Made by a program: the position numbers and the translations under genes
Notes under the pieces: model-generated
Databases searched by the model: none
The model's input: the letters and a program-made list of their open reading frames with translations, nothing else
What the model was told of the DNA's origin: nothing
UHGV virus genome: UHGV-2036287
Strand: one strand, 5' to 3'
DNA length: 37,454 nucleotides
Source: a virus
In this document: positions 955-37,454 of the stretch, in pieces
Numbering within the stretch: the first letter of the stretch is position 1
How the letters are laid out: the number at the start of each line of letters is the position of its first letter

Positions 955-955
955 A

Positions 956-11949: not shown

Positions 11950-11995
11950 ATGATGCGGCAGGGATGGCGGGATTTCTGTTAATGTGGTTTAGGGA

Positions 11996-13789: not shown

Positions 13790-13791
13790 TC

Positions 13792-20235: not shown

Positions 20236-20237
20236 CA

Positions 20238-22026: not shown

Positions 22027-22040
22027 TTTAAGGAGAGAGC

Positions 22041-22994: not shown

Positions 22995-23003
22995 GGAGGC
23001 GTT

Positions 23004-23342
23004 ATGGGAACCACTCAGCAGGTCATTCTGATCACAACCGTAACGGCAGGGGCAGCACTGGCACAGCAGCGTTTTGTCGGGGCAGATAATACCCCCTGTA
23101 AAGCCGGTGCCGCAGCGCTCGGGGTTGCCGAAGTGGATGCTGTTACCGGCGACAGCACGCCGGTGAGCGTTCTGGGCATTATTGCTGTCGAGGCCGGGGC
23201 CGCTGTCAGCCGTGGTGTGGCTGTTCAGTCAGATGCTCAGGCCAGAGCCGTGCCGCAGTCCGGCGACGGTAAATCCTGTGGTATTGCACTTGATGAAGCC
23301 GGGGGTGAAGGCGACGTCATTCGTATCCTGCGCGGGGTGTGA
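23004..23342 (+). CDS. Hypothetical head-associated protein (Ala/Gly/Val-rich)
   Basis: 112-aa ORF with RBS AGGAGG immediately after the capsid gene. Confidence 0.4.
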   Translation: MGTTQQVILITTVTAGAALAQQRFVGADNTPCKAGAAALGVAEVDAVTGDSTPVSVLGIIAVEAGAAVSRGVAVQSDAQARAVPQSGDGKSCGIALDEAGGEGDVIRILRGV

Positions 23343-23343
23343 C

Positions 23344-23790
23344 ATGTACTGCACCCTGGAGGATTTGCTTGCGCAGGTGCCGGAGCGGACGCTTATCGAG
23401 CTCACCAGTGAAGAGATGGACTTCGACTCGCCTGCAACAGTGAATACCCGTGTGGTGGACAGCTGTATCCGCTATGCCGACGAGCTGATTGATGCCCATC
23501 TGCGCGGACGCTATATCCTGCCACTGGCAGAGATACCGACTGTTCTGCGGGACATTGCCATCACGCTGGTCCGTTACCGGCTCTACGCCCGCCGCCCGGA
23601 AGGTGACCTCCCGGATACGGTGAAGGATGACCACAAAGAAGCGCTGCGGCAACTCAGGGAGTTACGTGATAACAGGCTCACGCTGGGGCTGCCGTCCACT
23701 CAGAAAGATGTGCCTGAGCCTGGCGAGTTTCGTGTACGCAGTCGCCCGGCCACTTTCGGCGGTCGTGACGGTTTACTGGAGAAATACTGA
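23344..23790 (+). CDS. Mu gp36-like protein (DUF1320; head completion/connector candidate)
   Basis: Starts at ATG 23344, 2 nt after the upstream stop; 148 aa. Confidence 0.45.
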   Translation: MYCTLEDLLAQVPERTLIELTSEEMDFDSPATVNTRVVDSCIRYADELIDAHLRGRYILPLAEIPTVLRDIAITLVRYRLYARRPEGDLPDTVKDDHKEALRQLRELRDNRLTLGLPSTQKDVPEPGEFRVRSRPATFGGRDGLLEKY

Positions 23791-24254
23791 TGAACGTTCT
23801 GCCCGTCCTTGATGCGGTACTGGCCCGGTTACGCGAGAAGCTGCCGCAACTGCAGGTGGAGTACTTCCCGGAGAAACCGGCTGAATATCGCCTGAACCAT
23901 CCGGTTGGCGCGTTGCTGCTGAGCTATGCCGGTTCGCGCTTTGACAGGCCGGATGATACCGGTGCGGTGATCCAGTCTCAGACTATCCAGCTCTGCGTCA
24001 CGGTGGTCTTCCGCCAGCTCAACGGTAAAAAAGGGGCGATTAATGTCCTGGATGCTGTCCGCCGCATTCTCGGTGGCCACACCCCGCCCGGCTGCCGCCG
24101 CCGTATCTGGCTGACCCGCGAGGTGTTTATCGGTGAAGTCAGGGGGCTGTGGCAATACGCCCTCGACTTCGCGACTGAAAGCATCTTTATCGAAGACAGC
24201 GATTTACCGTCCGGCCCGCTGTTAACCGAAGTGAACTATGAGGAAAGCGAGTGA
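23790..24254 (+). CDS. Mu gp37-like protein (DUF1834; head-tail joining candidate)
   Basis: 154-aa ORF, ATGA-coupled to the upstream gene. Confidence 0.45.
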   Translation: MNVLPVLDAVLARLREKLPQLQVEYFPEKPAEYRLNHPVGALLLSYAGSRFDRPDDTGAVIQSQTIQLCVTVVFRQLNGKKGAINVLDAVRRILGGHTPPGCRRRIWLTREVFIGEVRGLWQYALDFATESIFIEDSDLPSGPLLTEVNYEESE

Positions 24255-24505
24255 TGAAAGCATACCGCTATTCCGGCCCGGCCAGCGGCGTCACGCTGTC
24301 GGACGGAACCGAAATCCTGCTCTGGCCGGGGAAGGCGGTTTCCCTGCCGGAGGAGCATGACTACGTGAAGGTACTGGTGGCGCTGAAGCATCTGACGCCG
24401 GTACCAGAAGATACTAAACCCGCCGTCACACCGGCTGTGCAGTCACCAAAGCGCAGAAGCAGCAGTGACAGCGAAGTGAAAACGGAGGACGCCCATGGCA
24501 GCTAA
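24251..24505 (+). CDS. Hypothetical protein
   Basis: 84-aa ORF coupled at both ends within the head-tail block. Confidence 0.35.
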   Translation: MMKAYRYSGPASGVTLSDGTEILLWPGKAVSLPEEHDYVKVLVALKHLTPVPEDTKPAVTPAVQSPKRRSSSDSEVKTEDAHGS

Positions 24506-25922
24506 CTATCTGCATGGTCCCGAAACCATTGAGGTGGAAAACGGAGCCCGCCCGGTTAAAACGGTGAAATCTGCCGTTATTGGCCTGATTGGTACCGCCC
24601 CGATGGGGGATGTCAATACGCTGGTACAGTGCCTGTCTGAGAAAGACGCAGCGGCATTTGGCAGCCAGTTCACCGGCTTTACCATTCCGCAGGCGCTGGA
24701 TGCGATTTATGACCATGGTGCAGGCACCGTTCTGGTCATTAACGTCCTCGACCCGGCGAAACATAAAACGGCGATCGAGGATGAGGTGGTTACCTTTGAC
24801 AAATCGACAGGGCAGGCCAGACTGGCGCATCCGGTTGTCGCTAATGTGGTGGTGAAAAACAGTGAAGGCAGCACCACCCACACGGCGAACACGGACTACC
24901 GTGTTGATGCGCAGGCGGGTGTGCTCACGAACCTGGGCAAGGCTATTGAGGCCGGTGGCAGCGTGAAGGTGAGCTATGAGTACGCGGACCCGTCGAAGGT
25001 GACTGCGGCGGACATCATCGGCGGGGTGAACAGCGCCGGAAACCGAACCGGCATGAAGCTGCTTAACGACAGCTTCAACCTGTACGGCTATTTCGCCAAA
25101 ATTCTGATTGCGCCGGTGTTCTGCACCCAGAAGAGTGTCGCAGTTGAGCTTATCGCCATGGCAGAGAAGCTGGGCGCGGTAACCTACATTGATGCGCCTG
25201 TCGGTACCACCTTTGCACAGGCTCTGGCAGGTCGTGGCCCGGAAGGCACCATCAACTTCAATACCAGCTCCGACCGCGTCCGTCTGTGCTATCCGCATGT
25301 GAAGGTATATGACCCGGTGACAAACACAGAGCGTCTGGAGCCGCTCAGCCAGCGTGCAGCAGGTCTGCGTGCCAGAGTCGATCTGGACAAGGGCTACTGG
25401 TGGTCATCCTCCAATCAGGAGATTCTGGGGATCACCGGCGTGGAGCGCCAGCTGTCCGCGATGATTGATGACCCGCAGAGTGAGGTAAACCTGCTTAACG
25501 AACAGGGGATCACCACGGTATTCAGCAGTTACGGCAGCGGCCTTCGTCTGTGGGGTAACCGGACGGCAGCATGGCCAACGGTCACCCATATGCGTAACTT
25601 TGAGAACGTTCGCCGCACCGGTGATGTGATCAACGAGTCCATTCGTTATTTCAGCCAGCAGTACATCGACATGCCGATTACTCAGGCGCTGATTGATGCA
25701 CTGACGGAGTCGGTCAACGCCTACGGTCGCAAAATGACTGGTGATGGTGCGGTACTGGGCTTCCGTTGCTGGTTTGATCCGGCCCGCAATCCGGAGACGG
25801 AGCTGGCCGCCGGGCACCTGTTGCTGAGCTACAAATATACGCCACCACCGCCGCTGGAGCGACTGACGTTTGAGACTGAGATCACCTCGGAATACCTGTT
25901 AACCCTGAAAGGGGGCAACTGA
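24495..25922 (+). CDS. Contractile tail sheath protein (P2 FI / Mu L family)
   Basis: 475 aa; size, position before the tube gene, conserved C-terminal sheath region. Confidence 0.75.
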   Translation: MAANYLHGPETIEVENGARPVKTVKSAVIGLIGTAPMGDVNTLVQCLSEKDAAAFGSQFTGFTIPQALDAIYDHGAGTVLVINVLDPAKHKTAIEDEVVTFDKSTGQARLAHPVVANVVVKNSEGSTTHTANTDYRVDAQAGVLTNLGKAIEAGGSVKVSYEYADPSKVTAADIIGGVNSAGNRTGMKLLNDSFNLYGYFAKILIAPVFCTQKSVAVELIAMAEKLGAVTYIDAPVGTTFAQALAGRGPEGTINFNTSSDRVRLCYPHVKVYDPVTNTERLEPLSQRAAGLRARVDLDKGYWWSSSNQEILGITGVERQLSAMIDDPQSEVNLLNEQGITTVFSSYGSGLRLWGNRTAAWPTVTHMRNFENVRRTGDVINESIRYFSQQYIDMPITQALIDALTESVNAYGRKMTGDGAVLGFRCWFDPARNPETELAAGHLLLSYKYTPPPPLERLTFETEITSEYLLTLKGGN

Positions 25923-26443
25923 TGTCAAAGATTGAGATAAACCGCATCACGAATGCCAACATCTATCTGGATGGTACTAACCTGCTGGGACGGGCTGAGG
26001 AAGTTAAACTCCCCGATGTCTCCATGATTATGCAGGAACACAAGGCGCTGGGGATGGTGGGTAAGGTGGAACTCCCGGCTGGTTTTGACAAACTGGAAGG
26101 CGAAATCAAATGGAACAGCTTTTACCGCGATGCGATGCTGTCTGCCGCGAACCCGTACAGGTCGCTGGCACTGCAGTGTCGTTCCAGCGTCCAGCGCTAC
26201 AGCTCGCAGGGGCTGATTGACGAAATCCCGCTGGTCACCTTCCTGACGATTATGTTCAAGAAGAACCCGCTGGGGACGTTCAAACAGCACGAGAACGCCG
26301 AGTTCTCCAGTAGCTTCACCTGCACGTATATCAGACAGGTACTGGATGGTGAAGAGCTGCTGCAACTGGACTATCTGGCCAACATCTTCCGGGTCGGCGG
26401 TGTTGATCAACTGACTGACTACCGTATCAATATCGGGGGCTGA
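25922..26443 (+). CDS. Tail tube protein (P2 FII / Mu M family)
   Basis: 173 aa; start overlaps the sheath stop (TGATG). Confidence 0.7.
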   Translation: MSKIEINRITNANIYLDGTNLLGRAEEVKLPDVSMIMQEHKALGMVGKVELPAGFDKLEGEIKWNSFYRDAMLSAANPYRSLALQCRSSVQRYSSQGLIDEIPLVTFLTIMFKKNPLGTFKQHENAEFSSSFTCTYIRQVLDGEELLQLDYLANIFRVGGVDQLTDYRINIGG

Positions 26444-26445
26444 CG

Positions 26446-26727
26446 ATGAGTGTTGAACTGACGGATAAAGGAAGACGATGTGCGGCACTGGGCATGTCAA
26501 ATGGTACGTGGTTTACCCTCCTTGATATTCCGGGGGTGGAAACCCTTTTTAATACCCGTAAAACCAATGACCCGATTGACTGCACACGTTCAAAGGCCCG
26601 CAAACTGGCGGATTTGATTGAAGCATGGGAGCCTCCCGACCACTGGTTCTCCGGCACCGGCAAATCTGAGGGAAAGACGCTTCTCATCGCTTTCCTGCGT
26701 AACTGCAAGGGGTTTCGCACTTGCTGA
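26446..26727 (+). CDS. Hypothetical small protein (moron-like insert between tube and chaperone genes)
   Basis: 93-aa ORF followed by a clean terminator hairpin; no motif recognised. Confidence 0.4.
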   Translation: MSVELTDKGRRCAALGMSNGTWFTLLDIPGVETLFNTRKTNDPIDCTRSKARKLADLIEAWEPPDHWFSGTGKSEGKTLLIAFLRNCKGFRTC

Positions 26728-26733
26728 CATCAC

Positions 26734-26760
26734 AGGGGCTCCGGCCCCTTCTTCTTAATC
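26734..26760 (+). terminator. Rho-independent terminator
   Basis: AGGGGC-TCCG-GCCCCT stem-loop followed by TCTTCTTAATCTCC. Confidence 0.5.
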
Positions 26761-26824
26761 TCCTTTAATATCCGTCACGCGCTTCTCCCGACATACTGCC
26801 CTGAACTTACACAGGAGCACAATC

Positions 26825-27160
26825 ATGTCACAGACCCCATCCGATACTTTTAAATTGTCTTATCCCTTCACCACTGCTGCAGGCACCAGAATTGAGCAGG
26901 TTGAACTGAAACGCCTGACGGTAAAAGACCTGAAGCAGGTGCGCAAAATCAGCAAAAACCCGGCAGACTGGGACGAACCGCTGATTGCCCGCAGTACTGG
27001 TCTTCTCCCGGAAGATCTCGACAATATGGATCTGGCTGATTACCTGCAGTTACAGAAACGATTTCAGCTCATCACGGGGATGGGTGAGAGCAACCAGGGC
27101 GCTGACGCAGGCGCAGGGGCTGCTGGCGAGATGGTTCCGGTTTCAGCCGGGGGAGATTGA
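26825..27160 (+). CDS. Tail assembly chaperone (P2 gpE-like), upstream frame
   Basis: 111 aa, acidic, directly upstream of the tape measure gene; RBS AGGAG. Confidence 0.6.
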   Translation: MSQTPSDTFKLSYPFTTAAGTRIEQVELKRLTVKDLKQVRKISKNPADWDEPLIARSTGLLPEDLDNMDLADYLQLQKRFQLITGMGESNQGADAGAGAAGEMVPVSAGGD

Positions 27161-27242
27161 TGCCCTCGATACTGACGATCTGGAGATGTGGCTGGAGCAG
27201 GCTGAAGAGCAAATAAAAAGCGAGTACGGCGACAAATCATAG
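26825..27242 (+). CDS. Putative frameshift-extended tail assembly chaperone (E+E'-like fusion)
   Basis: A second ORF in another frame (open 26985-27242) overlaps the 3' half of the chaperone ORF and extends to within 75 bp of the tape measure start, the classic position for a programmed frameshift; by my frame arithmetic the shift is +1, which is unusual. Confidence 0.4.
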
Positions 27243-27317
27243 TACAGACAGCCGCCAGTAGCGGCTGTTCTGCGTTATCCCCTCACGTCTTTTCACCTTC
27301 CCCGGAGGTTAACCACT

Positions 27318-30269
27318 ATGTCGGGACAGTTTTCAGTCGGCGTTGTTATCGGCGGGATGATTGGCAGCACATTCCGTTCTGCAATGAGCGGTACCCGCCG
27401 TGCGCTTGATTCCCTGAGCGATACCTCACGCCGCCTGCAGGAACGTCAGAACGCTTTAACCCGTGCAACAGAACGTTATGGTCAACTGGGTTCTTCCCGG
27501 ATGCAGCATCTCAACAGCGAGCTGCTGCGGGTAAGCCGCACCATGGAGCAAATTGAGCGCCAGCAGCGCCGTCTGTCAGCGGCATCCGCTACCAGTGATG
27601 CGCTGAAAGCTAACCGCATGGCGCTGTATGGTCAGGGGATTGAAGCGTATGGCATGGCACAGACTGTTTATCATACGGTTTCCCCTGCCGTTCAGCAGTC
27701 CATGTCTTTTCAGGACAAAATGATTGATATGTCGATCACCGCAAAATATGACAATAAAACGCGGGATGCACTTGCCGGACAGATAAAAGGCTGGGCGCTT
27801 AAATACAATCAGTATCAGGATGAGCTGCAGGAGGCGGTGGGTTCACTCATCAGCGACAATATTGATAATGTGTCAGATATCGGTTTTCTGATGCCGGATA
27901 TTGCCCGCGCGGCAACGGCAACACGCACGTCTGCTCAGGACTGGGCAAAAGTGGCCGCAGTCTGGCAAAACTCCCTGAAAGGTGCGGCCAGAGATTTTGG
28001 TGCCGTTCAGAATATTATGGCTTATGCCGGTGACCAGGGGTCATTTGAAATCCCGGATCAGGTCAAGTGGATGCAGTCCCTGGCCCCAATGATGGCGGGT
28101 ATTGCCAGTGGAAAAGAAGCTGTTGCTGAAATCGGGGCCAGTCTCCAGATAGCAAAAATCGGTGCAGGTTCCACCGACGAAGCAGCCAATAATTTTAAAA
28201 ACTTTCTTACCAAAATTTTTGCCCGCGATACTCAGAAACAGTTTGCTGATCTGGGTATTGATTTGCAGGGATCTATTGCGAGTTATAAAGCTGCGGGGAT
28301 CTCTCCGATTGAAGGGATGTTGAGTGTTATAGAACGTTACCTCAATGCCAAAAGCCCCGAAGCGCTGGCCGGCTTCAAATCAGCCATGAAAATAAAGAAT
28401 GATACGGCAAGAGATGAGGCACTTCAGGCTCTGGCGAAAAACTTTGGTCTGGGCGATATGTTCGCGGATATGCAGGTCATGGCATTTATCCGCCCGATGC
28501 TGGCCAACATGGACAGATATCGAGAGATCCGTGCCGGTGCTCTCAGGGCTGCGGATAACGATTTGCTTGCCAGTGCTTATGATCAGCGGCTGAAATCTCC
28601 CCTTGAAGCCACTAAAACACTTATGGTCAGCAGTCGCGATCTGGCAATTACGCTGGGCGATCAATTAGCTCCATCTTTTATTTCTTTGACTCAGGAACTG
28701 CTTCCACTCATTCAGGGGGCAAAACACTGGGTAGCGACTCACCCGCAATTTGTCAGTGGGGCTTTTAAGCTCATCAGTGCGCTCCTTGCGATTAAGATAG
28801 CGACTGTTGGTCTCAAACTGGGGCTGAATCTCCTTATTTCCCCCTTTGTAAGTGTCTGGAAAAATGCTGTTTTACTTCGGGGCAACTGGCTTCGTCTGTC
28901 GCTCGCACTGGGGCAAGGCGGTAAGCTCCGCTGGCTGGTGACCGGATTTAGCGCCGTCGCCAGAGGAGCCAGAACACTGAGTGGCGTGCTCTCCGGGGGG
29001 CTGGTTCGCGGAATTATGCTCGCCGGACGTGCTGTTCTCTGGATTGGACGTGCGCTGATGATGAATCCCATCGGTCTCGTTATCACCGCTGTCGCGGCAG
29101 CAGCTTACCTTATCTACCGCAACTGGGGGGCAGTCAGTGGCTGGTTTAAACAGCGCTGGGCAGACATTCAGGAAGCCTTTAACGGCGGCATTGTGGGAAT
29201 TGGTAAGTTGCTGATTAACTGGTCGCCGGCAGGCCTGCTCTATAAAGCCTTTGCGGCTGCGCTGAAATATTTCGGCGTTGCTCTGCCGGCAAAGTTCACC
29301 GACTTCGGTGGCCATCTTATCGACGGTCTGATTAACGGTATCAAAAACAAATGGGGGTCGCTCAAATCCAGTGTAACCGGAATGGGTGACAGCATCAGTA
29401 GCTGGTTTAAACAGTGCTGGGCTGACATTCAGGAAGCCTTTAACGGCGGTATCGCGGGAACTGGTAAGCTGCTGATTAACTGGTCGCCGGCAGGTCTGCT
29501 CTATAAAGCCTTTGCAGCTGCGCTGAAATATCTTGGTGTTGATCTGCCGGCAAAGTTTACCGACTTCGGTGGCCATCTTGTCGATGGTCTGATTAACGGT
29601 ATCAAAAACAAATGGGAGTCGCTCAAATCCAGTGTAACCGGAATGGGTGACAGCATCAGTGGCTGGTTCAGCGAAAAGCTGGGCATTCATTCGCCGAGCC
29701 GCGTGTTTATGGGCTTTGGTGACAATATCGCGCAGGGGGCCGCCATTGGCCTGCAGCGGACCACTCCGCTTGCAGCTCTGGCCGGGCAGCGAATGGCCAG
29801 TGAACTGCTCCCCAAAATGCCCGTGAGCATTCAGGGGCCAGAAATACGGGATAACACTTCAGGTGTTCGCTTCAGTATGCCGTTGCCCGATATCAATGGG
29901 TTTATGTCGTCTGCTAAAAATGCGATCGGAGCCGTAATCAATAGTTTGTCTTCCATGCCCGCTATTCCGCTCTCCACCCGGGCATCGATTTTACCAGGGC
30001 AACGTCTGGCAAATGAGATGACACCGGATGTTCCCCGTATCCCCTCGCCTGAAATCCTGGCTGCCGGATATTCAGGCCGTGGTGCAACTGCAACCGGCGG
30101 TGGAACGTCTGGTGGTATCCAGGTCAGCTTTAATCCTCAGTTTTTCCTCAATGGCAGGGAAACCACAGCGCCTGCAGGACTGACTGGTGCCCTGAATATG
30201 AGTCTGCATGAGCTGGAAAAAATGCTGGAGCGTCTGCTGGCTCAGAAACAACGTAAGGAGTACCGCTGA
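27318..30269 (+). CDS. Tail tape measure protein
   Basis: 983 aa; N-terminal coiled coil, hydrophobic central segments, internal 87-aa tandem duplication; position between chaperone and baseplate genes. Confidence 0.8.
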   Translation: MSGQFSVGVVIGGMIGSTFRSAMSGTRRALDSLSDTSRRLQERQNALTRATERYGQLGSSRMQHLNSELLRVSRTMEQIERQQRRLSAASATSDALKANRMALYGQGIEAYGMAQTVYHTVSPAVQQSMSFQDKMIDMSITAKYDNKTRDALAGQIKGWALKYNQYQDELQEAVGSLISDNIDNVSDIGFLMPDIARAATATRTSAQDWAKVAAVWQNSLKGAARDFGAVQNIMAYAGDQGSFEIPDQVKWMQSLAPMMAGIASGKEAVAEIGASLQIAKIGAGSTDEAANNFKNFLTKIFARDTQKQFADLGIDLQGSIASYKAAGISPIEGMLSVIERYLNAKSPEALAGFKSAMKIKNDTARDEALQALAKNFGLGDMFADMQVMAFIRPMLANMDRYREIRAGALRAADNDLLASAYDQRLKSPLEATKTLMVSSRDLAITLGDQLAPSFISLTQELLPLIQGAKHWVATHPQFVSGAFKLISALLAIKIATVGLKLGLNLLISPFVSVWKNAVLLRGNWLRLSLALGQGGKLRWLVTGFSAVARGARTLSGVLSGGLVRGIMLAGRAVLWIGRALMMNPIGLVITAVAAAAYLIYRNWGAVSGWFKQRWADIQEAFNGGIVGIGKLLINWSPAGLLYKAFAAALKYFGVALPAKFTDFGGHLIDGLINGIKNKWGSLKSSVTGMGDSISSWFKQCWADIQEAFNGGIAGTGKLLINWSPAGLLYKAFAAALKYLGVDLPAKFTDFGGHLVDGLINGIKNKWESLKSSVTGMGDSISGWFSEKLGIHSPSRVFMGFGDNIAQGAAIGLQRTTPLAALAGQRMASELLPKMPVSIQGPEIRDNTSGVRFSMPLPDINGFMSSAKNAIGAVINSLSSMPAIPLSTRASILPGQRLANEMTPDVPRIPSPEILAAGYSGRGATATGGGTSGGIQVSFNPQFFLNGRETTAPAGLTGALNMSLHELEKMLERLLAQKQRKEYR
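29142..29663 (+). repeat. Tandem direct duplication, 2 x 261 bp, inside the tape measure gene
   Basis: Units starting at 29142 and 29403 are about 90% identical and in frame, encoding WFKQ(R/C)WADIQEAFNGGI...GMGDSIS(S/G) twice. Confidence 0.9.
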
Positions 30270-31153
30270 TGTTTGCCGTACTGGGTGATATTGAGTTTGA
30301 GCTGATTACCTACTGGGACGGCTTCGAGGCCACGTTCGGCGTCGATTATGCGGAGCATGCCCGCATCGGGGGTAAGCCTGGCCTGCAGTTCGTCGGCGAC
30401 AGGCTGGACGAAATCCAGATAAGTCTGGTCTTCCATCAGCATTATTGTGTACCCGATGTGGAGCTGGCGAGACTGCGAACAGCCATGAAAGCCCATCAGG
30501 CACTGGCGCTGGTCTTCGGCAACGGTGACTATCGTGGCTGGTTCGTGATTACCGATGTGACCGCAACCAGCGAGCAGACAGACAGCACCGGTAACGTGCT
30601 GGCTGTCAGTGCCACCGTGTCTCTCCGGGAATACACCGGTGATCCGAAAAATCCTCTGCAACCACCGGCAATACGCACGAAGCTCCCGGGTGTCGGGGCG
30701 GTCTCCGGTGCCATTCCTTCACCTTCAGGGGTGGCGCAGTTCATCCGCAACGGCGTCAACTATGCGAAACAGGCGCAGTCTGTACTCCAGACCACTATCA
30801 GCGCCGTTCGGGTGACACAGAAAATGAAGGATAACCCCGTTGTCGCACTGACCCGTGTGCCGGGGCTGATGAGCGGACTGGGTAATATCTCCGGGGCTCT
30901 GGGGAAAAGTGTTCCGGCGTTTAACGCACTCTCTGAATCCATGCCCGATGCCATCAGTCTGGCCAGAACAGCCAGCGAAGCAGCCACGTATGTACAGCAG
31001 GCACAGTCTGCGCTGAGTGGTGTGGACAAAAGAAATATTGCAGGTGCTCTGGATACCGTTTCCGGGCAGCTTAACGCCGCCGGCACAGCATTCAACCGCA
31101 TGTCTCCGGGATTAAGTGCAATGGCCGCCAGAATACTGACGAGGAGTGTGTGA
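30269..31153 (+). CDS. Tail protein, P2 gpU / Mu N N-terminal domain-like
   Basis: N-terminus MFAVLGDIEFEL...GKPGLQFVG resembles the gpU / DNA-circularisation N-terminal domain family; start overlaps the tape measure stop. Confidence 0.5.
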   Translation: MFAVLGDIEFELITYWDGFEATFGVDYAEHARIGGKPGLQFVGDRLDEIQISLVFHQHYCVPDVELARLRTAMKAHQALALVFGNGDYRGWFVITDVTATSEQTDSTGNVLAVSATVSLREYTGDPKNPLQPPAIRTKLPGVGAVSGAIPSPSGVAQFIRNGVNYAKQAQSVLQTTISAVRVTQKMKDNPVVALTRVPGLMSGLGNISGALGKSVPAFNALSESMPDAISLARTASEAATYVQQAQSALSGVDKRNIAGALDTVSGQLNAAGTAFNRMSPGLSAMAARILTRSV

Positions 31154-31365
31154 TGTTTCTTGAACATGTTACCCGTGACGGAGAGCGCTGGGATTCGCTG
31201 GCATGGCAGTACTACGGTGACCCGCTGGGCTATCCCCGGATTATTGCCGCCAATCCGCACGTGGCCATCACGCCGGTGCTGCCCTCCGGGCTGTTGTTAC
31301 TGATCCCGGTGATTGAGGCTGAAGAAGCCCGTACAGAAGAGGATATTGCCCCATGGCTGAGATAA
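31150..31365 (+). CDS. Tail protein X (P2 gpX-like)
   Basis: 71 aa with the ERWDSLAWQYYGDP motif typical of gpX. Confidence 0.6.
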   Translation: MMFLEHVTRDGERWDSLAWQYYGDPLGYPRIIAANPHVAITPVLPSGLLLLIPVIEAEEARTEEDIAPWLR

Positions 31366-32494
31366 ACAGCACTGCGCAAGTCACATCAGCGTTAACCGGC
31401 GTCAGCGATGTGCTGACACCGGTGTTCACTCTGTGGTATCTGCAGAAAAACATCACCTCTGATATCGCGCCTTATGTCACCCGTGTGACCTGGAGCGATA
31501 GTCCGATACCATTGAGGTGGAGCTGGACGACACCGATGGCCGCTGGCTGGATAAGTGGTATCCGGGCAAGGGTGACACGCTGACGCTGAAAATGGGCTAT
31601 CAGGGCGAGAAGCTGCTGTCCTGCGGTACGTTCTCTATAGACGAGATCGAAGTGAGTTCGCCCGCTTCCGTTGTTTCTATCCGTGGGGTGGCCACCTCGG
31701 TTAACAGTGCCCTGCGGACTAAAACCAGTCGTGGTTTTGAGAACACCACGCTGGCAGCTGTTGCGGGGCGGATTGCCAGAAAGCACCGACTGAAACTGGT
31801 GGGCAGCATTGAGTCCATCAGAATCGACCGGGTGACCCAGTATGCTGAAACCGACGTGGGTTTTCTGCGCCGGCTGGCCAGCGAGTATGGTTATGCAGTG
31901 AAAGTGGTCAGTGACCAGCTGATTTTTTCTCATCTGGCCACACTGCGCAGTCAGGAGCCGGTCAGGCAGTTAAAACCGCAGGATGTGGCCCGCTTTTCCC
32001 TGCGTGACACCATCAACCGGGTCTATAAATCTGCAAAGGTAAAACACCAGAAAAGCAGCAGTAAAAAACTGATCGTCTACGAAGCTGATGGTGGTACCCG
32101 TGAAAGCGACAAAAAGCTCAAAGGTGGTAAGGTTACCAGCGCTGACTCACTTAAAGTTAACAGCCGCGTCAGCGACCCGGACAGTGCCCGGATTAAAGCG
32201 GATTCAGCACTGGCCAGACATAACGAATACCAGCAGAACGGCTCCCTGACGCTGACGGGAACACCTCAACTGACAGCAGGCAACAAAATTGAACTGGTGG
32301 GTTTTGGGCAGTTATCCGGGCCATGGCTCATAACCACTGCCCGCCATGCGTTTGACCGTAACAGCGGCTACACCACAGAGCTGGAAGTGGCACGGGGGCC
32401 AGTCACAAGAGGGAAAAAACAAAAAACTCAGAAACTCACGGTTTATCACCCGGATGGCAGTACATCGACGGTGATTAAGGAGAAGAAAAAATGA
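31353..32494 (+). CDS. Tail/baseplate hub protein, P2 gpD / Mu P family, interrupted by a frameshift near 31500 (possible pseudogene or sequencing error)
   Basis: N-terminal 50 codons are in one frame (stop at 31581-31583); the rest, including the conserved EVELDDTDGRW segment, is in the -1 frame opening at 31502; combined length about 380 aa matches gpD. Confidence 0.6.
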
Positions 32495-33087
32495 CTGGTG
32501 TCACTCGTCAGGTCGGTACGGTCAGTGCCGTTGATGCCGACAGGGTTCAGGCCCGCGTTCGTCTGCCTGAATGCGATAACCTGCGCACAAACTGGCTTAA
32601 CGTGCTGCAGCGCAATACCCAGGATAACAAAGATTACTGGCTCCCTGACGTGGGGGAGCAGGTTGAGGTGCTGCTCGATGCCAACGGCGAGGATGGTGTT
32701 ATTCTGGGCGCGGTGTATTCAGACGTCGATAAACCACCGTTCAGTGACAAAAATATCCGGGGAACCCGGTTTGCTGATGGTGCAGAGTACAGCTACAACC
32801 GGAAGACGCACACTCTGATCATCCGGGGCGGCATTGAGCATATTGTCATTGAGTGTGGTGCTGATGTGGTATTGAAAACACAGAAAGCCACGATTGACGC
32901 ACCGGAAACCGAACTTACCGGAGATCTGCGTGTCAGGGGTAAGCTGATTTACGAAGGAGGCATGGCGGGTTCTGGTGGTGAAGGTGTTACCGCGACCATC
33001 CATGGCAATATCGAGATTAAAGGGAATGCCCATGCCACGGGCAGTATGTTGTCTGATGGCGAAAACTCCAGCCACCACTCCCACTGA
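32491..33087 (+). CDS. Baseplate spike / assembly protein V (P2 gpV-like)
   Basis: 198 aa; OB-fold N-terminus and Gly-rich C-terminal region; gene order D-V-W-J-I. Confidence 0.7.
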   Translation: MTGVTRQVGTVSAVDADRVQARVRLPECDNLRTNWLNVLQRNTQDNKDYWLPDVGEQVEVLLDANGEDGVILGAVYSDVDKPPFSDKNIRGTRFADGAEYSYNRKTHTLIIRGGIEHIVIECGADVVLKTQKATIDAPETELTGDLRVRGKLIYEGGMAGSGGEGVTATIHGNIEIKGNAHATGSMLSDGENSSHHSH

Positions 33088-33141
33088 GCTTTTTAAACGC
33101 CTTTAATATCAGCGTTCCCGCACGGGGGCAATACTGCCCCC

Positions 33142-33489
33142 ATGAAAACAACCTCAGTATTCTGGCAACCAGCCCTGCAGGCTCCCGGCGAAATTGTCCG
33201 GGGGCTGGATGATATCCGGCAGGCGATTCAAATTATCCTGCGGACTCCCCGCGGCAGCGACCCGCATCGCCCGGAGTTCGGCAGCAATCTGCATCTTTAT
33301 ATCGACTGGCCTGTAGACCGGGCCATTCCGCATGTGGTGCGCGAATCCGTCGATGCCATCCGGCGCTGGGAGCCCCGCTGCCAGCTTATGTCAGTTAAAC
33401 CCGCCGTCGACGGCGAACATCTTACGCTCCGGGTGAGCTGGAAAGGCTCAGACGGACAGACCCGGACTCAGGAGCTGCTATGGCGCTGA
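33142..33489 (+). CDS. Baseplate protein W (P2 gpW / T4 gp25-like)
   Basis: 115 aa; position and size. Confidence 0.7.
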   Translation: MKTTSVFWQPALQAPGEIVRGLDDIRQAIQIILRTPRGSDPHRPEFGSNLHLYIDWPVDRAIPHVVRESVDAIRRWEPRCQLMSVKPAVDGEHLTLRVSWKGSDGQTRTQELLWR

Positions 33490-34583
33490 CAGAACCCGAT
33501 TTTATTGAACGCGATGCCGACAAAATCACGGCAGAAATGATTGCGAAGTATGAAGCGGATACCGGCAAAACGCTGTACCCGGCACAGGCAGAACGTCTGC
33601 TGATTGATCTGTGGGCCTATCGCGAAATGCTGGTCAGGGTTGCGGTACAGGAGGCAGCAAAGCAGAATCTGGTCGCCTTTGCCCGTGAGCCGATGATTGA
33701 TTACCTCGGTGAACTGGTTGGTGTATACCGTCTTGCCGCGCAGCCTGCCACCACCACGCTCCAGTTCTCCGTAGATGAGGCACTGGCCATTGATGTGCTG
33801 ATCCCGGCAGGCACCCGCGTCAGCGCTTCCGACAGCGTTATTTTTGCCACCGATACAGATGTGGTACTGAAGGCCGGATTGCTGCTGGTCAATGTCACGT
33901 CCACCTGTACCGAACCCGGTACCGCTGGTAACGGCTGGCAACCTGCGCAGGTCAGTCAGTTACTCGATGAGATTGATAACGTCGACATGCTGGTGAGCAA
34001 TCTGACGGTCAGTTCCGGCGGTTCAGAACAGGAAGACGATGACAGGCTCCGGGAGCGTATCAGGCTGGCCCCGGAGTCATTCACCAATGCCGGAAGCCGT
34101 GGCGCATACCGCTTTCATGCCATGCAGGCCCATCCCAACATTGTCGATGTTGCTGTGCTTTCCCCGGTTCCCGGGACCGTAGATCTGTATCCGCTGCTCA
34201 GTACCGGTCTGCCGGACGGCGGTGTTCTCACGCTGGTAGAGAGTTTCTGCTCTGATGAGAAAGTCAGGCCACTCACTGATACAGTGCGGGCTAAAACACC
34301 AGTGAAGGTGGATTACACCATTGAAGCCAGGATTACGATCTATCGTGATCAGGATGCCAGGTCTGTAAAAGATGCCGCTAACAGCGCCATACAGAACTGG
34401 GTGGCATCACGTGCCGCCACGCTGGGGCGTGATATTGTCCCCAGCCAGATTATCAGTGCATTGTCCGTTTCCGGGGTGTACCAGGTTGAACTGGTGAAAC
34501 CGGCACTGAGGGTGGTGGCAGAAAACGAATGGGCAAACTGTACGGCGATCACACTTAACATGAGTGGAGTGTCTGATGACTGA
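33480..34583 (+). CDS. Baseplate protein J (P2 gpJ-like)
   Basis: 367 aa; overlaps W and I genes as in P2-type baseplate operons. Confidence 0.7.
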   Translation: MALTEPDFIERDADKITAEMIAKYEADTGKTLYPAQAERLLIDLWAYREMLVRVAVQEAAKQNLVAFAREPMIDYLGELVGVYRLAAQPATTTLQFSVDEALAIDVLIPAGTRVSASDSVIFATDTDVVLKAGLLLVNVTSTCTEPGTAGNGWQPAQVSQLLDEIDNVDMLVSNLTVSSGGSEQEDDDRLRERIRLAPESFTNAGSRGAYRFHAMQAHPNIVDVAVLSPVPGTVDLYPLLSTGLPDGGVLTLVESFCSDEKVRPLTDTVRAKTPVKVDYTIEARITIYRDQDARSVKDAANSAIQNWVASRAATLGRDIVPSQIISALSVSGVYQVELVKPALRVVAENEWANCTAITLNMSGVSDD

Positions 34584-35154
34584 GCCATTACAACTCCCGC
34601 CACCGCTTGAGGGTGATATCAGTCTCAGGACGCTGGGAAGACTGGCAGGGCGGCTGGATAACATCGACCTGAGCGTACTGATGGTCTTTCTCGTCGATAT
34701 CGTCGACAGTTCTGCGCTGCCATGGCTGGGCGAGCAGTTCTCACTGTCTGGCGATGGCTGGGAGCTGGCGGAATCGGACGATGTTCGCCGCATGCTTATA
34801 AAAGCAGCCATCGAACTACACCGGTATAAAGGGACGCCGTGGTCAATCCGGGAAGTTATCCGCCGTTTTGGCTTTGGTGAAGTGGATCTGATTGAAGGCA
34901 CAGGTCGTCTCAGTTACGACGGCAATCGCAGCTATAACGGACTGTTTGTTCATGGAGATACAGCCGCCTGGGCGGTTTATCGCGTTATTCTGAAACAGCC
35001 CATTACTAACGATCAGGCCGCGATGCTGCGTCAGACGCTCGCTGCATTTGCACCGGCCCGCTGCCATCTGGCCAGCCTGGAGTATCAGTCTGTGGCCATT
35101 CGCTATAACAATACCGCCATCCATGATGGCAGTTATAACCACGGGAGCAGTTGA
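34576..35154 (+). CDS. Tail protein I (P2 gpI-like)
   Basis: About 192 aa from ATG 34576 (the ORF also has a GTG at 34564); upstream of the tail fibre gene. Confidence 0.6.
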   Translation: MTEPLQLPPPLEGDISLRTLGRLAGRLDNIDLSVLMVFLVDIVDSSALPWLGEQFSLSGDGWELAESDDVRRMLIKAAIELHRYKGTPWSIREVIRRFGFGEVDLIEGTGRLSYDGNRSYNGLFVHGDTAAWAVYRVILKQPITNDQAAMLRQTLAAFAPARCHLASLEYQSVAIRYNNTAIHDGSYNHGSS

Positions 35155-35156
35155 TT

Positions 35157-36449
35157 ATGGGAAACCTGAATGAAACAGAAAAGTGGGAAGAAAATATCTA
35201 TCAACTGGAGACATCAGATCCGGTTCTGGGTGGTGCTGACGGGATATCAAATCGAGCCCCCCGGCAACTGGCAAACAGGACGAAATGGCTGAAGAAAAAA
35301 ACGGAGGAAGCCGCACAGTCACTGGCTGAACACGTACGTTCCCGTAACCACCCGGACGCGACACTGACAGCTAAGGGGTTCACCCAACTGAGCAGTGCCA
35401 CCAACAGCACCTCTGAAACGCTGGCCGCCACACCAAAAGCCGTCAAGGCTGCATACGACCTTGCAGCCGGCAAGGCGCCCGTCAGCCACACTCACCCGTG
35501 GAGTCAGATAACGGGAGTGCCTGCTGCCTCGCTGACGGCAAAAGGCACCGTACAACTGAGCAGTGCCACCAACAGCACCTCTGAAACGCTGGCCGCCACA
35601 CCAAAGGCCGTCAAGGCTGCATATGACCTGGCTGCCGGCAAGGCCCCCGTCAGCCACACTCACCCGTGGAGTCAGATAACGGGAGTGCCTGCTGCCTCGC
35701 TGACGGCAAAAGGCACCGTACAACTGAGCAGTGCCATCAACAGCACGTCTGAAATACTGGCCGCCACACCGAAAGCGGTCAAGGCTGCATACGATCTGGC
35801 AAACGGAAAACAACCGGCAGATGCCACGCTCACTGCTCTGGCAGGACTTGCCACTGCAGCAGATCGGTTGCCTTATTTTACCGGAGCAGACCGCGCAGCG
35901 CTGGCAACCCTTACAGCTATTGGTCGCGCTATTATCGCTAAGGGCAGTATAAAAGATGTCCTCAATTACCTTGGTTTGGGGGAAGGCTCTGCATTGCCTG
36001 TTGGTGTACCGGTTCCATGGCCCACCGCCACACCGCCAGCAGGCTGGTTACAGTGCAACGGAGCTACGTTCACCAAAGAACAATATCCTGTTCTGGCCAG
36101 AGTCTACCCGACCCTCCGTCTTCCCGATTTACGCGGTGAGTTTATCCGTGGATGGGACGACGGGCGCAAGATTGACGAGGGGCGTAAGTTGCTTTCATGG
36201 CAGAAAGGTACACTGGTCGGCGGTCATGACGATAACGATTCTTCGCTGGATATCTCGTACATGAGTAACGGAAATAATATTGACTATGGCGGCGATAAGG
36301 TGTTTGCGGGGAATTACCGTAGCGATTATTTGTGGTACGCAATTCTGGGTGGAACAAACAGTCGCGCAAAAGCCGAATTAAACGGAGCATTCTTTAACAT
36401 AACCCGCCCCCGCAATATCGCGTTTAACTATATCGTGAGGGCGGCGTGA
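35157..36449 (+). CDS. Tail fibre protein (P2 H / Mu S-like) with internal tandem repeats and variable C-terminal tip
   Basis: About 430 aa; three copies of a 56-aa unit (TAKG..QLSSATNSTSETLAATPKAVKAAYDLAAGK...); C-terminus ends RPRNIAFNYIVRAA; the ORF track begins at a TTG at 35151. Confidence 0.75.
   Translation: MGNLNETEKWEENIYQLETSDPVLGGADGISNRAPRQLANRTKWLKKKTEEAAQSLAEHVRSRNHPDATLTAKGFTQLSSATNSTSETLAATPKAVKAAYDLAAGKAPVSHTHPWSQITGVPAASLTAKGTVQLSSATNSTSETLAATPKAVKAAYDLAAGKAPVSHTHPWSQITGVPAASLTAKGTVQLSSAINSTSEILAATPKAVKAAYDLANGKQPADATLTALAGLATAADRLPYFTGADRAALATLTAIGRAIIAKGSIKDVLNYLGLGEGSALPVGVPVPWPTATPPAGWLQCNGATFTKEQYPVLARVYPTLRLPDLRGEFIRGWDDGRKIDEGRKLLSWQKGTLVGGHDDNDSSLDISYMSNGNNIDYGGDKVFAGNYRSDYLWYAILGGTNSRAKAELNGAFFNITRPRNIAFNYIVRAA
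35364..35830 (+). repeat. 168-bp tandem repeats (about 2.8 copies) within the tail fibre gene
   Basis: Units starting at 35364, 35532 and 35700 are near-identical at the nucleotide level. Confidence 0.85.
36104..36169. repeat. Left copy of an inverted repeat (at least 66 bp perfect) inside the tail fibre gene
   Basis: 36104-36169 is identical to the reverse complement of 37389-37454; similarity continues imperfectly for about 25 bp further inward. Confidence 0.8.
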
Positions 36450-36455
36450 TACCGT

Positions 36456-37070
36456 TCAGCTGGCAAGTGCCAGTGGCGCTTCCGGCCAGCTGATTTCAGG
36501 TGCCGTGCTGATATCCAGTGCGTTCAGCTCGTCGATATAATCCAGCACGGCGTTCAGTTTTGCCGTTTCTTCTGGTGTCAGACTGCGACCAGCACGCAGT
36601 TTGAGGTTGATAAGATCGACGGACGCCATCGCCTGTTTCACCCGTTGCTGGCGTTGCTGTCTGGCAACCTCCAGTTCTGCGGCTCGCTGCCGTTCAGTAT
36701 CGGTTACCCACGCCTCACCGTTCCAGGTATCCCATGGCGTGGCCGGCTGTTTTGTGGTGGTGTCCGCCGGGTAATCACCCGGTTGGGTAATCAGAACGGG
36801 GTTACCGTTCTCCGTGCTGTATACCGTCTCGCCGCGGTGATCAGGCACATGCTCCCACCCGTTCAGCGTGGCAGTCCGGCAAACCACGTAACCCGAAATT
36901 GCCTCCGGCGGTGCATCGGCGCACGAATGTGCCGGAGTACCCACCCCAAGGGCGAGATACTCCACAGAGGATGAGGTGTATTCCCGGGTTTCCTCGTCAT
37001 AGTGATATACAGTGATCTCGCCCGCTACAGTGGCGATACCGTTTTCATCCAGAACTGCAGTGTTACTCAT
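36456..37070 (-). CDS. Tail fibre assembly protein (Mu U / P2 G family), opposite strand
   Basis: 204 aa; conserved C-terminal region (LTPEETAKLNAVLDYIDELNALDIS); translationally coupled (TAATG) to the upstream minus-strand fibre-tip ORF. Confidence 0.7.
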   Translation of the reverse strand: MSNTAVLDENGIATVAGEITVYHYDEETREYTSSSVEYLALGVGTPAHSCADAPPEAISGYVVCRTATLNGWEHVPDHRGETVYSTENGNPVLITQPGDYPADTTTKQPATPWDTWNGEAWVTDTERQRAAELEVARQQRQQRVKQAMASVDLINLKLRAGRSLTPEETAKLNAVLDYIDELNALDISTAPEISWPEAPLALAS

Positions 37071-37454
37071 TAAACTGCCCTCACAATGTAATTAAGTGCA
37101 ATGCTACGGGGTCTGACAGTGATACCCTTCGCATACCCGCTTCTGATAGAGGTCAGAATAGTAGCCTGCATACCATTGTCTGACATTGCCACGACAGGAT
37201 CGCTGAATGTTGTCCCGTCCGGCATTTTAAAGCTGCCCTCACGAAGGTCTGTAATGGAATCTTCATTGTTGAATCCCATGCCGACTATCCCCGAGGTTCC
37301 CGTAGTGTCCTGGTTATAATAATCCAGCATTGCTGTTCTTAACAGCGTTGCCCCTTGTGCGGACAGCAACTTACGTCCTGTATCAACTTTGCGCCCGTCG
37401 TCCCATCCACGGATAAACTCACCGCGTAAATCGGGAAGACGGAGGGTCGGGTAG
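37070..37454 (-). CDS. Alternative tail-fibre C-terminal domain on the opposite strand (5' end beyond the window)
   Basis: Frame open to the window edge; N-terminal part in the window (YPTLRLPDLRGEFIRGWDDGRK...) is encoded by the inverted repeat and matches residues of the plus-strand fibre; C-terminus ends RPRSIALNYIVRAV, paralleling the plus-strand fibre C-terminus. Confidence 0.6.
   Translation of the reverse strand, partial: YPTLRLPDLRGEFIRGWDDGRKVDTGRKLLSAQGATLLRTAMLDYYNQDTTGTSGIVGMGFNNEDSITDLREGSFKMPDGTTFSDPVVAMSDNGMQATILTSIRSGYAKGITVRPRSIALNYIVRAV
37389..37454. repeat. Right copy of the inverted repeat (truncated by the window edge)
   Basis: Reverse complement is identical to 36104-36169. 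Confidence 0.8.

Follow-up and report, generated by a model that had tools for sequence, protein, structure and literature searches.

Genes and features at the tail-fibre locus

The window, that is, the whole stretch of DNA analysed here (37,454 nt), carries a Bcepmuvirus-like prophage (Table 1) from which, judging by its relatives, about 850 bp of the right end are absent. Pfam searches identified an rve transposase, AAA_22, Portal_Mu and the tail sheath, and relatives have annotated baseplate genes V, W, J and I. The prophage is 98.7% identical to Escherichia phage PhiKM, which is classified as Bcepmuvirus and for which our literature search found no publication. Identity with the host gene yejO stops at position 882, which marks an insertion in yejO. 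In relatives, 78 bp separate the stop codon of an invertase gene from the right end (...GCGCATCA), and the flanking DNA differs between genomes. The prophage ends read TGAT... and ...ATCA and carry GATAAATG motifs, and four insertion sites were found (yejO, paaJ, next to aroA, and next to an Ail/Lom pseudogene). The rve transposase with its AAA+ partner, the Mu-type portal, the P2-type tail and the varied insertion sites all fit a Bcepmuvirus-like transposable phage. The left end of the window sits in IS1, and positions 1-882 (IS1 and yejO) gave matches that never continue into the prophage, so that no complete genome was found to share the prophage-host junction of the window.

Table 1. Features at the tail-fibre locus and the surrounding prophage, in window coordinates
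Feature	Position	Strand	Evidence or remark
Bcepmuvirus-like (Mu-head, P2-tail) transposable prophage	883..37454	+	Left end at 883 (TGATTAG...)
Tail-fibre gene, constant part and tip cassette A	35157..36449	+	ORF; Pfam Phage_fiber_2 (three copies) and Collar
Three tandem 168-nt repeats, Phage_fiber_2 shaft	35364..35867	+	Repeat family D1; Pfam; in the constant part
Left 26-bp crossover site, TCCTCAATTACC TT GGTTTGGGGGAA	35959..35984	.	Centre dinucleotide at 35971-35972
Left arm of the 229-nt repeat	35968..36196	+	Repeat of relative L001 mapped onto the window; inside the invertible segment
66-nt perfect core	36104..36169	+	Exact match to the right arm; not the crossover point
Tip A-specific coding sequence, currently expressed	36197..36449	+	No chaperone gene after tip A on the + strand
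Single tail-fibre assembly (Tfa) gene	36456..37070	-	Pfam Caudo_TAP, E 3.5e-28
Alternative tip cassette B, 5' end cut by the window edge	37070..37454	-	Frame open to the edge
Right arm of the repeat	37362..37454	-	93 of 229 nt within the window

The fibre ORF is bounded by 35151 or 35157 and 36449, and its ATG at 35157 comes after the gpI stop codon at 35154. Its constant 5' part comprises positions 35157-35970 and terminates in the crossover site. The Pfam Collar domain covers fibre residues 285-332, within the region of the left repeat arm, and the variable region is homologous to the tip of T4 gp37 (PDB 2xgf, E 5.6e-14). Escherichia phage 503046 has a tip with 100% identity to the tip A-specific sequence. 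A tblastn search against phages returned one identical prophage-derived record for it, the remaining matches being weak (30-43% identity).

The minus-strand ORF in the right arm encodes the same YPTLRLPDLRGEFIRGWDDGRK peptide as the fibre ORF. In relatives, where cassette B is complete, it comprises 170-175 aa with a Pfam Collar domain and ends at a right crossover site, with an in-frame TGA stop immediately outside. A Collar domain is present in every cassette, and it is the C-terminal part of the fibre that is exchanged in frame; each tip is made up of a collar domain, a short insert that varies and a C-terminal strand that the tips share. In RefSeq, the fibre gene of this prophage family is given as strings of pseudogene fragments and the spare cassettes of relatives as free-standing 'phage tail proteins', and both labels mislead.

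The ATG of tfa overlaps the stop codon of tip B (TAATG) and is served by the ribosome-binding site GAGGG; from this arrangement, tfa is predicted to be translationally coupled to tip B. In the orientation found in the window, tfa is antisense to the late transcript.

Inverted repeat and crossover sites

A sequence-only reading of this DNA had reported a perfect inverted repeat of at least 66 bp, and positions 36104-36169 are indeed the exact reverse complement of 37389-37454. The expected number of perfect inverted repeats of this length in 37.5 kb of random sequence is about 1e-31 (approximately 7e8 position pairs / 4^66). A repeat search at lower stringency extended the match inward to 36104-36196 / 37362-37454 (93 nt at 91%). 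In complete E. coli genomes the full repeat measures 229 nt, and its right arm extends 136 nt past the window edge. The coordinates of the left arm were obtained from relative L001, in which the repeat lies at 7818-8046 / 9212-9440 with 93% identity between the arms. The earlier placement of the left arm in the fibre gene and of the right arm in the minus-strand ORF holds, but the repeat is not at the start of that ORF, because the ORF runs about 130 nt further past the edge. The 229-nt repeat is the collar-domain coding sequence carried by every cassette, and not the recombination site.

The crossover sites are 26-bp sites of the Gin/Hin type at the outer ends of the 229-nt repeat. The left site of the window is identical to the left site of relatives L001 and L005, the pair that flipped there, and it matches the published Phi2_5prime site of E. 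coli EC958 (PMC4134206). In relatives, the second site lies in inverted orientation 120-145 nt past the window edge. The two sites, TTCCCCCAAACC AA GGTAATTGAGGA and TTCCCCCAAACC AA CGTTTATCTCTC, are inverted with respect to each other, share the same central dinucleotide and resemble Mu gix (TTATCCAAAACC TC GGTTTACAGGAA), the inner half-site being equal to gix at 9 of 12 positions. They also agree with the Sandmeier consensus as quoted in PMC4134206. Recombining sites within the 66-nt perfect block, and with them an invertible unit of 36170-37388, had been suggested from the sequence; both have to be given up, as the unit extends from about 35971 to about 37588 (extrapolated window coordinates). 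The closest relatives of the window (L001 and L002) have two sites and a segment of 1,617 bp. On the other hand, ST131 and plasmid variants have three sites, one on the left and two on the right, making four arrangements and three alternative fibre C-termini possible; a second right-hand site of this kind would fall past the right edge of the window.

An invertase beyond the window edge in relatives

No serine recombinase was found in the window, where a tblastn search with the invertase of the relatives gave only noise (E of at least 2). In every relative examined, an invertase gene of 190 aa starts 200 nt past the window edge. Its product, WP_000904922.1 ('recombinase family protein'), is encoded in complete genomes that are 97-99% identical to the window and contains a Resolvase domain (E 8e-51) and a C-terminal HTH_7. 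It shares 76% identity over 181 residues with Mu Gin (PDB 4m6f/3uj3, E 2e-93), and its Ser9 is found within the motif YIRVSTNDQ. Of the 790 genomes with any match, 740 have the arm, the site and the invertase in one contiguous stretch, leaving about 50 (approximately 6%) without a contiguous arm and invertase. The proposal that a Gin/Cin/Pin-family invertase lies beyond the right edge is thus borne out in close relatives, in which rightward extension recovered the remaining repeat, the second site and the Gin-family serine invertase.

The first 240 nt of the invertase gene are 77% identical to gin. Besides, three G-N13-C Fis-like motifs with AT-rich centres occur at +22, +94 and +140 in the invertase gene and gin alike, which is suggestive only; we infer from this that the switch may use a Fis-dependent enhancer located in cis, within the 5' end of the invertase gene. 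A scan for sigma-70-like promoters of tfa or the invertase in L001 7600-10200 found none, with 2.3 expected by chance. This result is uninformative, because the late promoters of Mu-like phages are activator-dependent.

Both orientations occur in related genomes

Among complete genomes, 327 contain the junction predicted for the flipped segment as one contiguous match (up to 100.0% over 959 nt), in agreement with the computed flipped configuration, which gives an uninterrupted in-frame fibre of 445 aa. The orientation of the window is found in 103 complete genomes. In AR_0013 and CE10 the prophage is the same and sits at one shared insertion site, and the inversion is precisely what sets the two apart: an in-silico flip reduces the mismatches over 4,071 bp from 887 to 0. 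A pair of ST131 genomes gave 10 mismatches when flipped, as against 925 unflipped. The two orientations in nature are a result of the present comparison, and switching within one culture has been reported for prophage Phi2 of EC958, for which PacBio reads from a single culture gave both orientations (PMC4134206). The flipped and unflipped genomes, the isogenic pair and the published reads for the same locus support the view, first taken from the sequence, that this is an invertible tail-fibre segment.

Proposed mechanism

Based on these results, we conclude with high confidence that the DNA between 35959 and the right edge represents the left-hand four-fifths of an invertible tail-fibre segment, driven by a Gin-family serine invertase, in a Bcepmuvirus-like prophage inserted in yejO. 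Following the left site, the segment carries tip A on the plus strand and a single tfa and tip B on the minus strand. The invertase would cut both sites at the identical central AA/TT and rotate the segment, by which tip A would be replaced in frame by tip B (432 aa to 445 aa) and tfa would come to lie directly downstream of the fibre gene. The exchange of tips presumably changes receptor specificity and hence host range. Past the window edge we would expect GCTCTGGCCAGAAC..., followed by the site TTCCCCCAAACCAACGTTTATCTCTC, the invertase and ...GCGCATCA with yejO. By analogy with the relatives, the genome from which the window derives probably still has the right site and the invertase, and the switch is probably active in this strain. 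The activity is read from the relatives because the window contains neither the right site nor the invertase and no complete genome carries its yejO insertion.

The right edge of the window is most likely the point at which a short-read assembler stopped at the perfect 66-nt core of the repeat. The window shows once more that contigs from short reads are interrupted within repeats of this kind, and the entire segment was lost in the same manner from the deposited 'partial genome' of PhiKM.

Alternative explanations

It is improbable that the switch is dead in the strain of the window, the right site and/or the invertase having been deleted or disrupted and tip A fixed. Such a loss would be compatible with a window that ends ahead of the right site, with a contig that begins in IS1 in a genome whose IS elements are active, and with the roughly 50 genomes lacking a contiguous arm and invertase; truncated invertases do exist, as shown by Phi4 of EC958 (PMC4134206). 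However, the contig stops exactly at the end of the perfect repeat, provided that its tip-B arm equals that of L001 and L005 (99.7% identical), in which the next base past the edge is G versus A in the other arm. This counts against a dead switch because assemblers stop in this way at intact inverted repeats. The remaining prophage also looks intact, and Gin-family invertases encoded elsewhere in the cell are able to work in trans (PMC4134206).

It is very improbable that homologous recombination by RecA, acting on the long arms (in the 66-nt core, for instance), inverts the segment in place of a site-specific reaction. The arms would offer a possible substrate, being 229 nt long and 93% identical with perfect blocks of 66-129 nt, but an exchange in a perfect block would leave arm differences behind. 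Between AR_0013 and CE10, all 15 arm differences travelled with the segment, even the ones at 18-68 nt from the centre of the site. Since the first of them lies 18 nt inward of the centre, the exchange took place no further than about 19 bp from it, at a distance of over 130 nt from the 66-nt core. The junction itself is a 26-bp Gin-type site that adjoins a Gin homologue, as expected for the site-specific inversion that we favour.

There is hardly any chance that the minus-strand ORF represents a second fibre gene in inverted orientation that is complete, independent and equipped with its own promoter, in which case the repeat would reflect paralogy and nothing would invert. The frame of the ORF stays open at the window edge, and in relatives RefSeq lists the ORF as a CDS of its own named 'phage tail protein', both of which would suit a separate gene. 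However, in the relatives it is a collar cassette of 170-175 aa only, with neither a Phage_fiber_2 shaft nor an N-terminal attachment part, which refutes this alternative reading there. The similarity to the fibre ends at the crossover site next to the in-frame TGA, the sigma-70 scan of L001 found no promoter-like site, and hundreds of genomes fuse the ORF in frame to the constant part. An assembly artefact at the edge, such as a fold-back or a chimeric contig end, is next to impossible: both ends of the window are repeats, IS1 on the left and the inverted repeat on the right, so that the assembler determined the contig boundaries, but finished genomes are collinear with the window over the whole 2,304 nt at 98%, and only the truncation is artefactual. 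A crossover in the 66-nt core, a separate second fibre gene and a fold-back artefact were all rejected. Complete genomes and published work decided the question as a whole.

A single assembly gene for several tips

The observation that only one chaperone gene is present, and that none follows the expressed tip, was correct and proved to be a conserved feature of the lineage. A tblastn search of the window for a second tfa returned only the known gene. Tips A, A' and C are without a tfa of their own in the window, in L001-L005 and in EC958, and the single-tfa layout is likewise found on a phage-plasmid and in Klebsiella phage KP12. Mirror-image pairs of a tip with its own chaperone, the layout of Mu G and P1 C, are absent from the window, L001-L005, EC958, the phage-plasmid and KP12. 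Searches for relatives of Tfa among solved structures found none at E <= 0.01, and Mu U and U' gave no tblastn match to the Tfa of the window.

One chaperone for two or three tips raises the doubtful possibility that the switch toggles more than the identity of the tip. Tips A, A' and C may fold without a Tfa encoded in cis and represent a chaperone-independent class of gp37-like collar tips. On the other hand, the single Tfa may be provided by an unrecognised route that is independent of orientation, or by other prophages. The orientation of the window may also be an OFF state that is defective in the fibre. It is not certain that a functional fibre is made in both states, because tip A, unlike the tips of Mu and P1, has no chaperone in cis. 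We found no mention of the single-chaperone asymmetry in the literature on Phi2 of EC958 and related fibre switches, and the EC958 figure legend speaks in general terms of mirror-image cognate pairs (PMC4134206). The single-chaperone design poses a small, testable question, namely which gp37-like tips need Tfa.

Comparison with known inversion systems

The locus is a textbook host-range switch and is already known, since prophage Phi2 of E. coli O25b:H4-ST131 EC958 has the same locus (Forde et al. 2014, PLoS One, PMC4134206). The tail genes and the constant fibre part of Phi2 are 98.2% identical to the window, tip B and tfa are 99.2% identical, and its invertase protein is identical to WP_000904922.1 of the relatives. 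The crossover sites published for Phi2, TCCTCAATTACCTT GGTTT.G.GGAA and GAGAGATAAACGTT GGTTTGGGGGAA, are the same as those described here and belong to an imperfect inverted repeat of 227 bp (PMC4134206). EC958 differs in having three sites and three cassettes (A', B and C) in a 2,067-bp segment, whereas the window has allele A at the first position, the specific part of which is without a counterpart in EC958, where allele A' is found in its place. The insertions differ as well, being next to aroA in ST131 and in yejO in the window.

The sequence-only reading had compared the layout with the Mu G, P1 C and e14 P systems, and this stands for the invertase, the inverted sites and the in-frame exchange of tips, but not for mirror-image chaperone pairs. 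The likeness to Mu G/Gin comprises an invertase with 76% identity, inverted 26-bp sites with a 2-bp central overlap, an invertase gene directly to the right of the segment on the plus strand, an in-frame exchange of the fibre C-terminus and a transposable phage as carrier. On the other hand, Mu G spans 3 kb, contains two complete Sv-U pairs and has repeats of only 34 bp, whereas the segment described here measures 1.6 kb and has 229-nt repeats, cassettes of about 160-175 aa and a single tfa. The central dinucleotide is AA/TT here and GA/TC in Mu. The C segment of P1, inverted by Cin, contains long inverted repeats whose outer ends carry the crossover sites, and these repeats are shared fibre coding sequence. 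The P1 repeats are about 0.6 kb long, and there are two chaperone genes.

The three-site variants follow the same logic as the three-repeat 'shufflon' in a P2-like prophage of EPEC E2348/69 (Goldberg et al. 2014, PMC4272514), with which we also group Min of plasmid p15B, a multiple-inversion system. Shufflons of the R64 type (Rci tyrosine recombinase, 19-bp sfx sites, pilV) do not fit a locus with a serine invertase and a phage fibre as target. With regard to the tip itself, the collar domain of the cassettes aligns with T4 gp37 (PDB 2xgf, E 5.6e-14) and the shared C-terminus NIAFNYIVRAA with the gp37 C-terminus NIAFNYIVRLA, but the inserts between the collar parts are unrelated and far shorter here (about 60-90 aa), and T4 does not invert. 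Finally, the module of tips, single Tfa and invertase is found at 99.9% identity on an unrelated phage-plasmid, which makes this copy a clean example of the horizontal exchange of a complete host-range switch.

Inverted repeat and fibre genes in the window

The last 66 nt of the window are the exact reverse complement of an internal stretch and reach its final base, and when mismatches are allowed the repeat grows inward to 93 nt at 91% identity. By our own arithmetic, a perfect inverted repeat of 66 nt is expected about 1e-31 times in a random sequence of 37.5 kb, and the repeat is therefore not due to chance. The left arm lies in the tail-fibre ORF and the right arm in a minus-strand ORF open at the window edge, both encoding the same peptide, YPTLRLPDLRGEFIRGWDDGRK. 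Between the arms, the ATG of the tail-fibre assembly (chaperone) gene tfa shares bases with the stop codon of the minus-strand tip (tip B, the alternative to tip A, which is now fused to the constant fibre part). No second tfa and no serine recombinase were found in the window. The arrangement described by the sequence-only reading, with repeat arms in the fibre gene and in the minus-strand ORF, a single chaperone gene coupled to the alternative tip and no visible invertase, was thus recovered within the window.

Three tandem repeats of 168 nt (100%, 92% and 63% identity) make up the fibre shaft, and the repeat number varies by backbone, from three in the window to five on a plasmid. The fibre ORF is uninterrupted in the window. 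RefSeq/PGAP splits the intact gene of this prophage family (window 35157-36449) into two to four pseudogene fragments ('incomplete, partial in the middle of a contig'; AR_0013 7205-8299, E300010 7205-8431, CE10 5606-6739), and calls each spare tip cassette a 'phage tail protein' CDS in its own right.

Features of the prophage and its invertible region
Feature	Coordinates	Strand	Remarks
IS1 end	window 1-62		last 62 nt
Part of autotransporter gene yejO	window 63-882		100% identical to other strains
Prophage left end	window 883 (883-930)		starts TGATTAG..., TGATTAGACTTGAGATAAATG...; inserted in yejO
Tape-measure protein	window 27318-30269		
gpW/gp25 baseplate gene	window 33142-33489		115 aa, intact
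Tail-fibre ORF	window 35151/35157-36449	+	three Phage_fiber_2 repeats and Collar domain; holds left arm
Fibre shaft repeats	window 35364-35867		
Left crossover site	window 35984-35959	-	
Perfect repeat	window 36104-36169 / 37389-37454		66 nt
Repeat with mismatches	window 36104-36196 / 37362-37454		93 nt
tfa	window 36456-37070	-	Caudo_TAP, between arms
Prophage right terminus	AR_0013 (L001) 10077-10154		ends ...CATTTATCGCGCGGCGCATCA

Crossover sites and invertase in relatives

The fibre region is present in 774 of 5,426 complete E. coli genomes, and two collinear relatives, AR_0013 and E300010 (98-99% identical), were used to extend the sequence rightward. In both, the repeat runs 136 nt further, giving a complete repeat of 229 nt at 88-93% identity (window 35968-36196 and its partner arm). 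It is followed by a 26-bp site, TTCCCCCAAACC AA CGTTTATCTCTC, of which the left site, TTCCCCCAAACC AA GGTAATTGAGGA, is the mirror image, then by a 54-nt spacer and the plus-strand gene of a 190-aa 'recombinase family protein' (WP_000904922.1). This protein contains Resolvase and HTH_7 domains and a catalytic serine at position 9, and is 76% identical to Gin of Mu over 181 residues (E 2e-93 against PDB 4m6f, 3uj3). Among the 790 genomes having any match, 740 carry arm, site and recombinase as one contiguous stretch. Both the rest of the repeat and the Gin-family invertase, which had been placed beyond the right edge, are thus found there in relatives.

The predicted flipped junction, built by inverting the AR_0013 sequence between the two site centres, is contiguous in 327 complete genomes (best match CE10, 100.0% over 959 nt) and the orientation of the window in 103, so that both proposed orientations occur among relatives. 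AR_0013 and CE10 carry one prophage at one insertion site, with common flanking genes, protein accessions and gpW internal stop; inverted in silico at 7821-9437, AR_0013 equals CE10 over 4,071 bp with 0 mismatches, compared to 887 when unflipped. In an ST131 pair (L003/L004) with identical right flanks, flipping the segment between the left site and the middle one leaves 10 mismatches versus 925. The AR_0013 and CE10 prophages, otherwise identical, are told apart by six SNPs, all of them in the fibre shaft repeats.

Fifteen differences separate the arms of AR_0013, the nearest to the site centre being 18 nt inward of it, and beyond the centre the outer flanks diverge at once, from the first base on. 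All 15 differences travelled with the segment between AR_0013 and CE10, which places the exchange within ~19 bp around the central dinucleotide and rules out an exchange in the long perfect block (69-197 nt inward in AR_0013), corresponding to the 66-nt core. As read from these alignments, the flip carries the signature of site-specific, not homologous, recombination. The invertible unit would extend from about 35971 to about 37588 in extrapolated window coordinates, instead of the 36170-37388 previously suggested, since the sites are at the outer ends of the repeat.

The locus has been described before. PacBio assembly of E. coli EC958 yielded 'spurious' contigs holding prophage tail-fibre segments in alternative orientation, and the crossover sites reported for Phi2 (Table 3), TCCTCAATTACCTT GGTTTAGGAGAA and GAGAGATAAACGTT GGTTTGGGGGAA, are each 'part of 227 bp imperfect inverted repeat' with an invertible segment of 2,067 bp between them (Forde et al. 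2014, PMC4134206). We confirmed these sites at their published coordinates in the EC958 region. The Phi2 invertase is identical in protein to that of the relatives, and Phi2 is 98.2% identical to the window across the tail genes and constant fibre part; tip B and tfa are 99.2% identical but on the opposite strand, and the EC958 reference is therefore in the other orientation. Rearranged fibre segments and an invertase have also been described in a 'Burkho_phiE255' (Bcepmuvirus) prophage of ST131 wound isolates (bioRxiv paper). Besides, a third, internal site, TTC(T/C)CC(T/C)AAACC AA CGTTTCTATGCC, is found between the ST131 Phi2 cassettes (L003 9412-9437; EC958, reverse complement of L007, 5997-6022); Table 3 of PMC4134206, as read, lists two outer sites only, and the flip between L003 and L004 uses the middle one.

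Tip cassettes

Four tip alleles were seen, i.e., A (window, AR_0013, E300010), A' and C (ST131), and B (all loci). Every cassette comprises a collar domain, for which the repeat codes, an unrelated insert of 60-90 aa and, last, a common C-terminus, RPR(N/S)IA(F/L)NYIVRA(A/V). In T4 gp37 the chain comes back, its last strand completing the collar. The collar part of the cassettes aligns with the receptor-binding tip of gp37 (PDB 2xgf, E 5.6e-14), and the gp37 C-terminus, NIAFNYIVRLA, aligns with the common C-terminus. A similar returning strand would account for the common ending of all cassettes and for the existence of the long repeat, the latter being structural coding sequence and not a recombination site.

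The alternative in the sequence-only reading, that the minus-strand ORF is a complete inverted second fibre gene, is refuted in relatives, where it is a collar-only cassette of 170-175 aa delimited by the site, immediately beyond which lies an in-frame TGA. Three sites in all, one on the left and two on the right, are present in the ST131 and plasmid variants and allow four arrangements and three C-termini, a logic like that of an EPEC P2-like prophage (PMC4272514).

The prophage and its missing right end

The window is a Bcepmuvirus-like transposable prophage, with an rve transposase, its AAA+ partner, a Mu-type portal and a P2-type sheath, and is 98.7% identical to Escherichia phage PhiKM, classified as Bcepmuvirus. 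Insertion is Mu-style and the termini are Mu-like: four different insertion sites occur among the loci, and the right flanks vary between genomes (Ail/Lom pseudogene, paaJ, or aroA side). A prophage at the yejO insertion point of the window was absent from all complete E. coli genomes searched. Each end carries GATAAATG motifs, to which the transposase probably binds. In relatives, the right end (...GCGCATCA) is 78 bp past the invertase stop, and thus only ~850 bp of the element are missing from the window.

Repeated DNA is found at both ends of the window. The base just past the edge is G in AR_0013 and CE10, the closest across tip B (99.7%), whereas the other arm predicts A, so that the perfect repeat would end exactly at the edge. 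As a de Bruijn-graph assembler stops in this way at an inverted repeat, the cut-off at the edge most likely reflects a break in the assembly. The PhiKM record, deposited as 'partial genome' (PQ738613.1, ~19287-20544), passes from a truncated 320-aa fibre gene directly to the early region, without invertible segment and invertase, probably reflecting the same repeat-induced assembly problem.

The gpW/gp25 gene is intact in the window and has an internal stop in AR_0013 (4992-5339) and CE10 (3393-3740), and on this basis the prophage of the window may be functional and those two not. The tape-measure protein contains, in translation, a ~95-aa tandem duplication (WFKQ(R/C)WADIQEAFNGGI...GMGDSIS twice); the gene is annotated as truncated or incomplete in E300010 and L003, and the region is thus variable.

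A 92.5-kb phage-plasmid (NZ_CP022228.3, 33677-46453) carries the invertible module behind a different constant fibre part of 628 aa with five shaft repeats. Its tfa and invertase proteins are identical to those of the prophage, arm and invertase are 99.9% identical in nucleotides, and on plasmids the arm/invertase search found 435 matching places. It seems that the entire switch is transferred horizontally as one unit.

Single chaperone and comparison with known switches

The oddity of one chaperone gene, pointed out from the sequence, is real and conserved. All E. coli loci examined have one tfa, coupled to tip B, with tips A, A' and C lacking one, and the same layout is found in the phage-plasmid and in Klebsiella phage KP12. 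In the orientation of the window, tfa runs antisense to the transcript of the fibre gene, and a sigma-70-like scan of AR_0013 7600-10200 found no independent promoter for it. Tip A may fold without Tfa, may obtain it in trans, or may represent a defective state. Apart from this single chaperone, the finding is already explained.

The likeness to Mu G and P1 C holds in part. The mirror-image layout of Mu and P1, with paired chaperones, is not matched, as only one tfa is present. On the other hand, the inner half-site matches Mu gix (TTATCCAAAACC TC GGTTTACAGGAA, from the fetched G segment) at 9 of 12 positions, and the gene order, a segment followed by a plus-strand invertase, is like that of Mu. 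Overall, these results support the interpretation as an inversion switch, with corrected crossover sites and segment boundaries, which as a whole works like Mu G/Gin.
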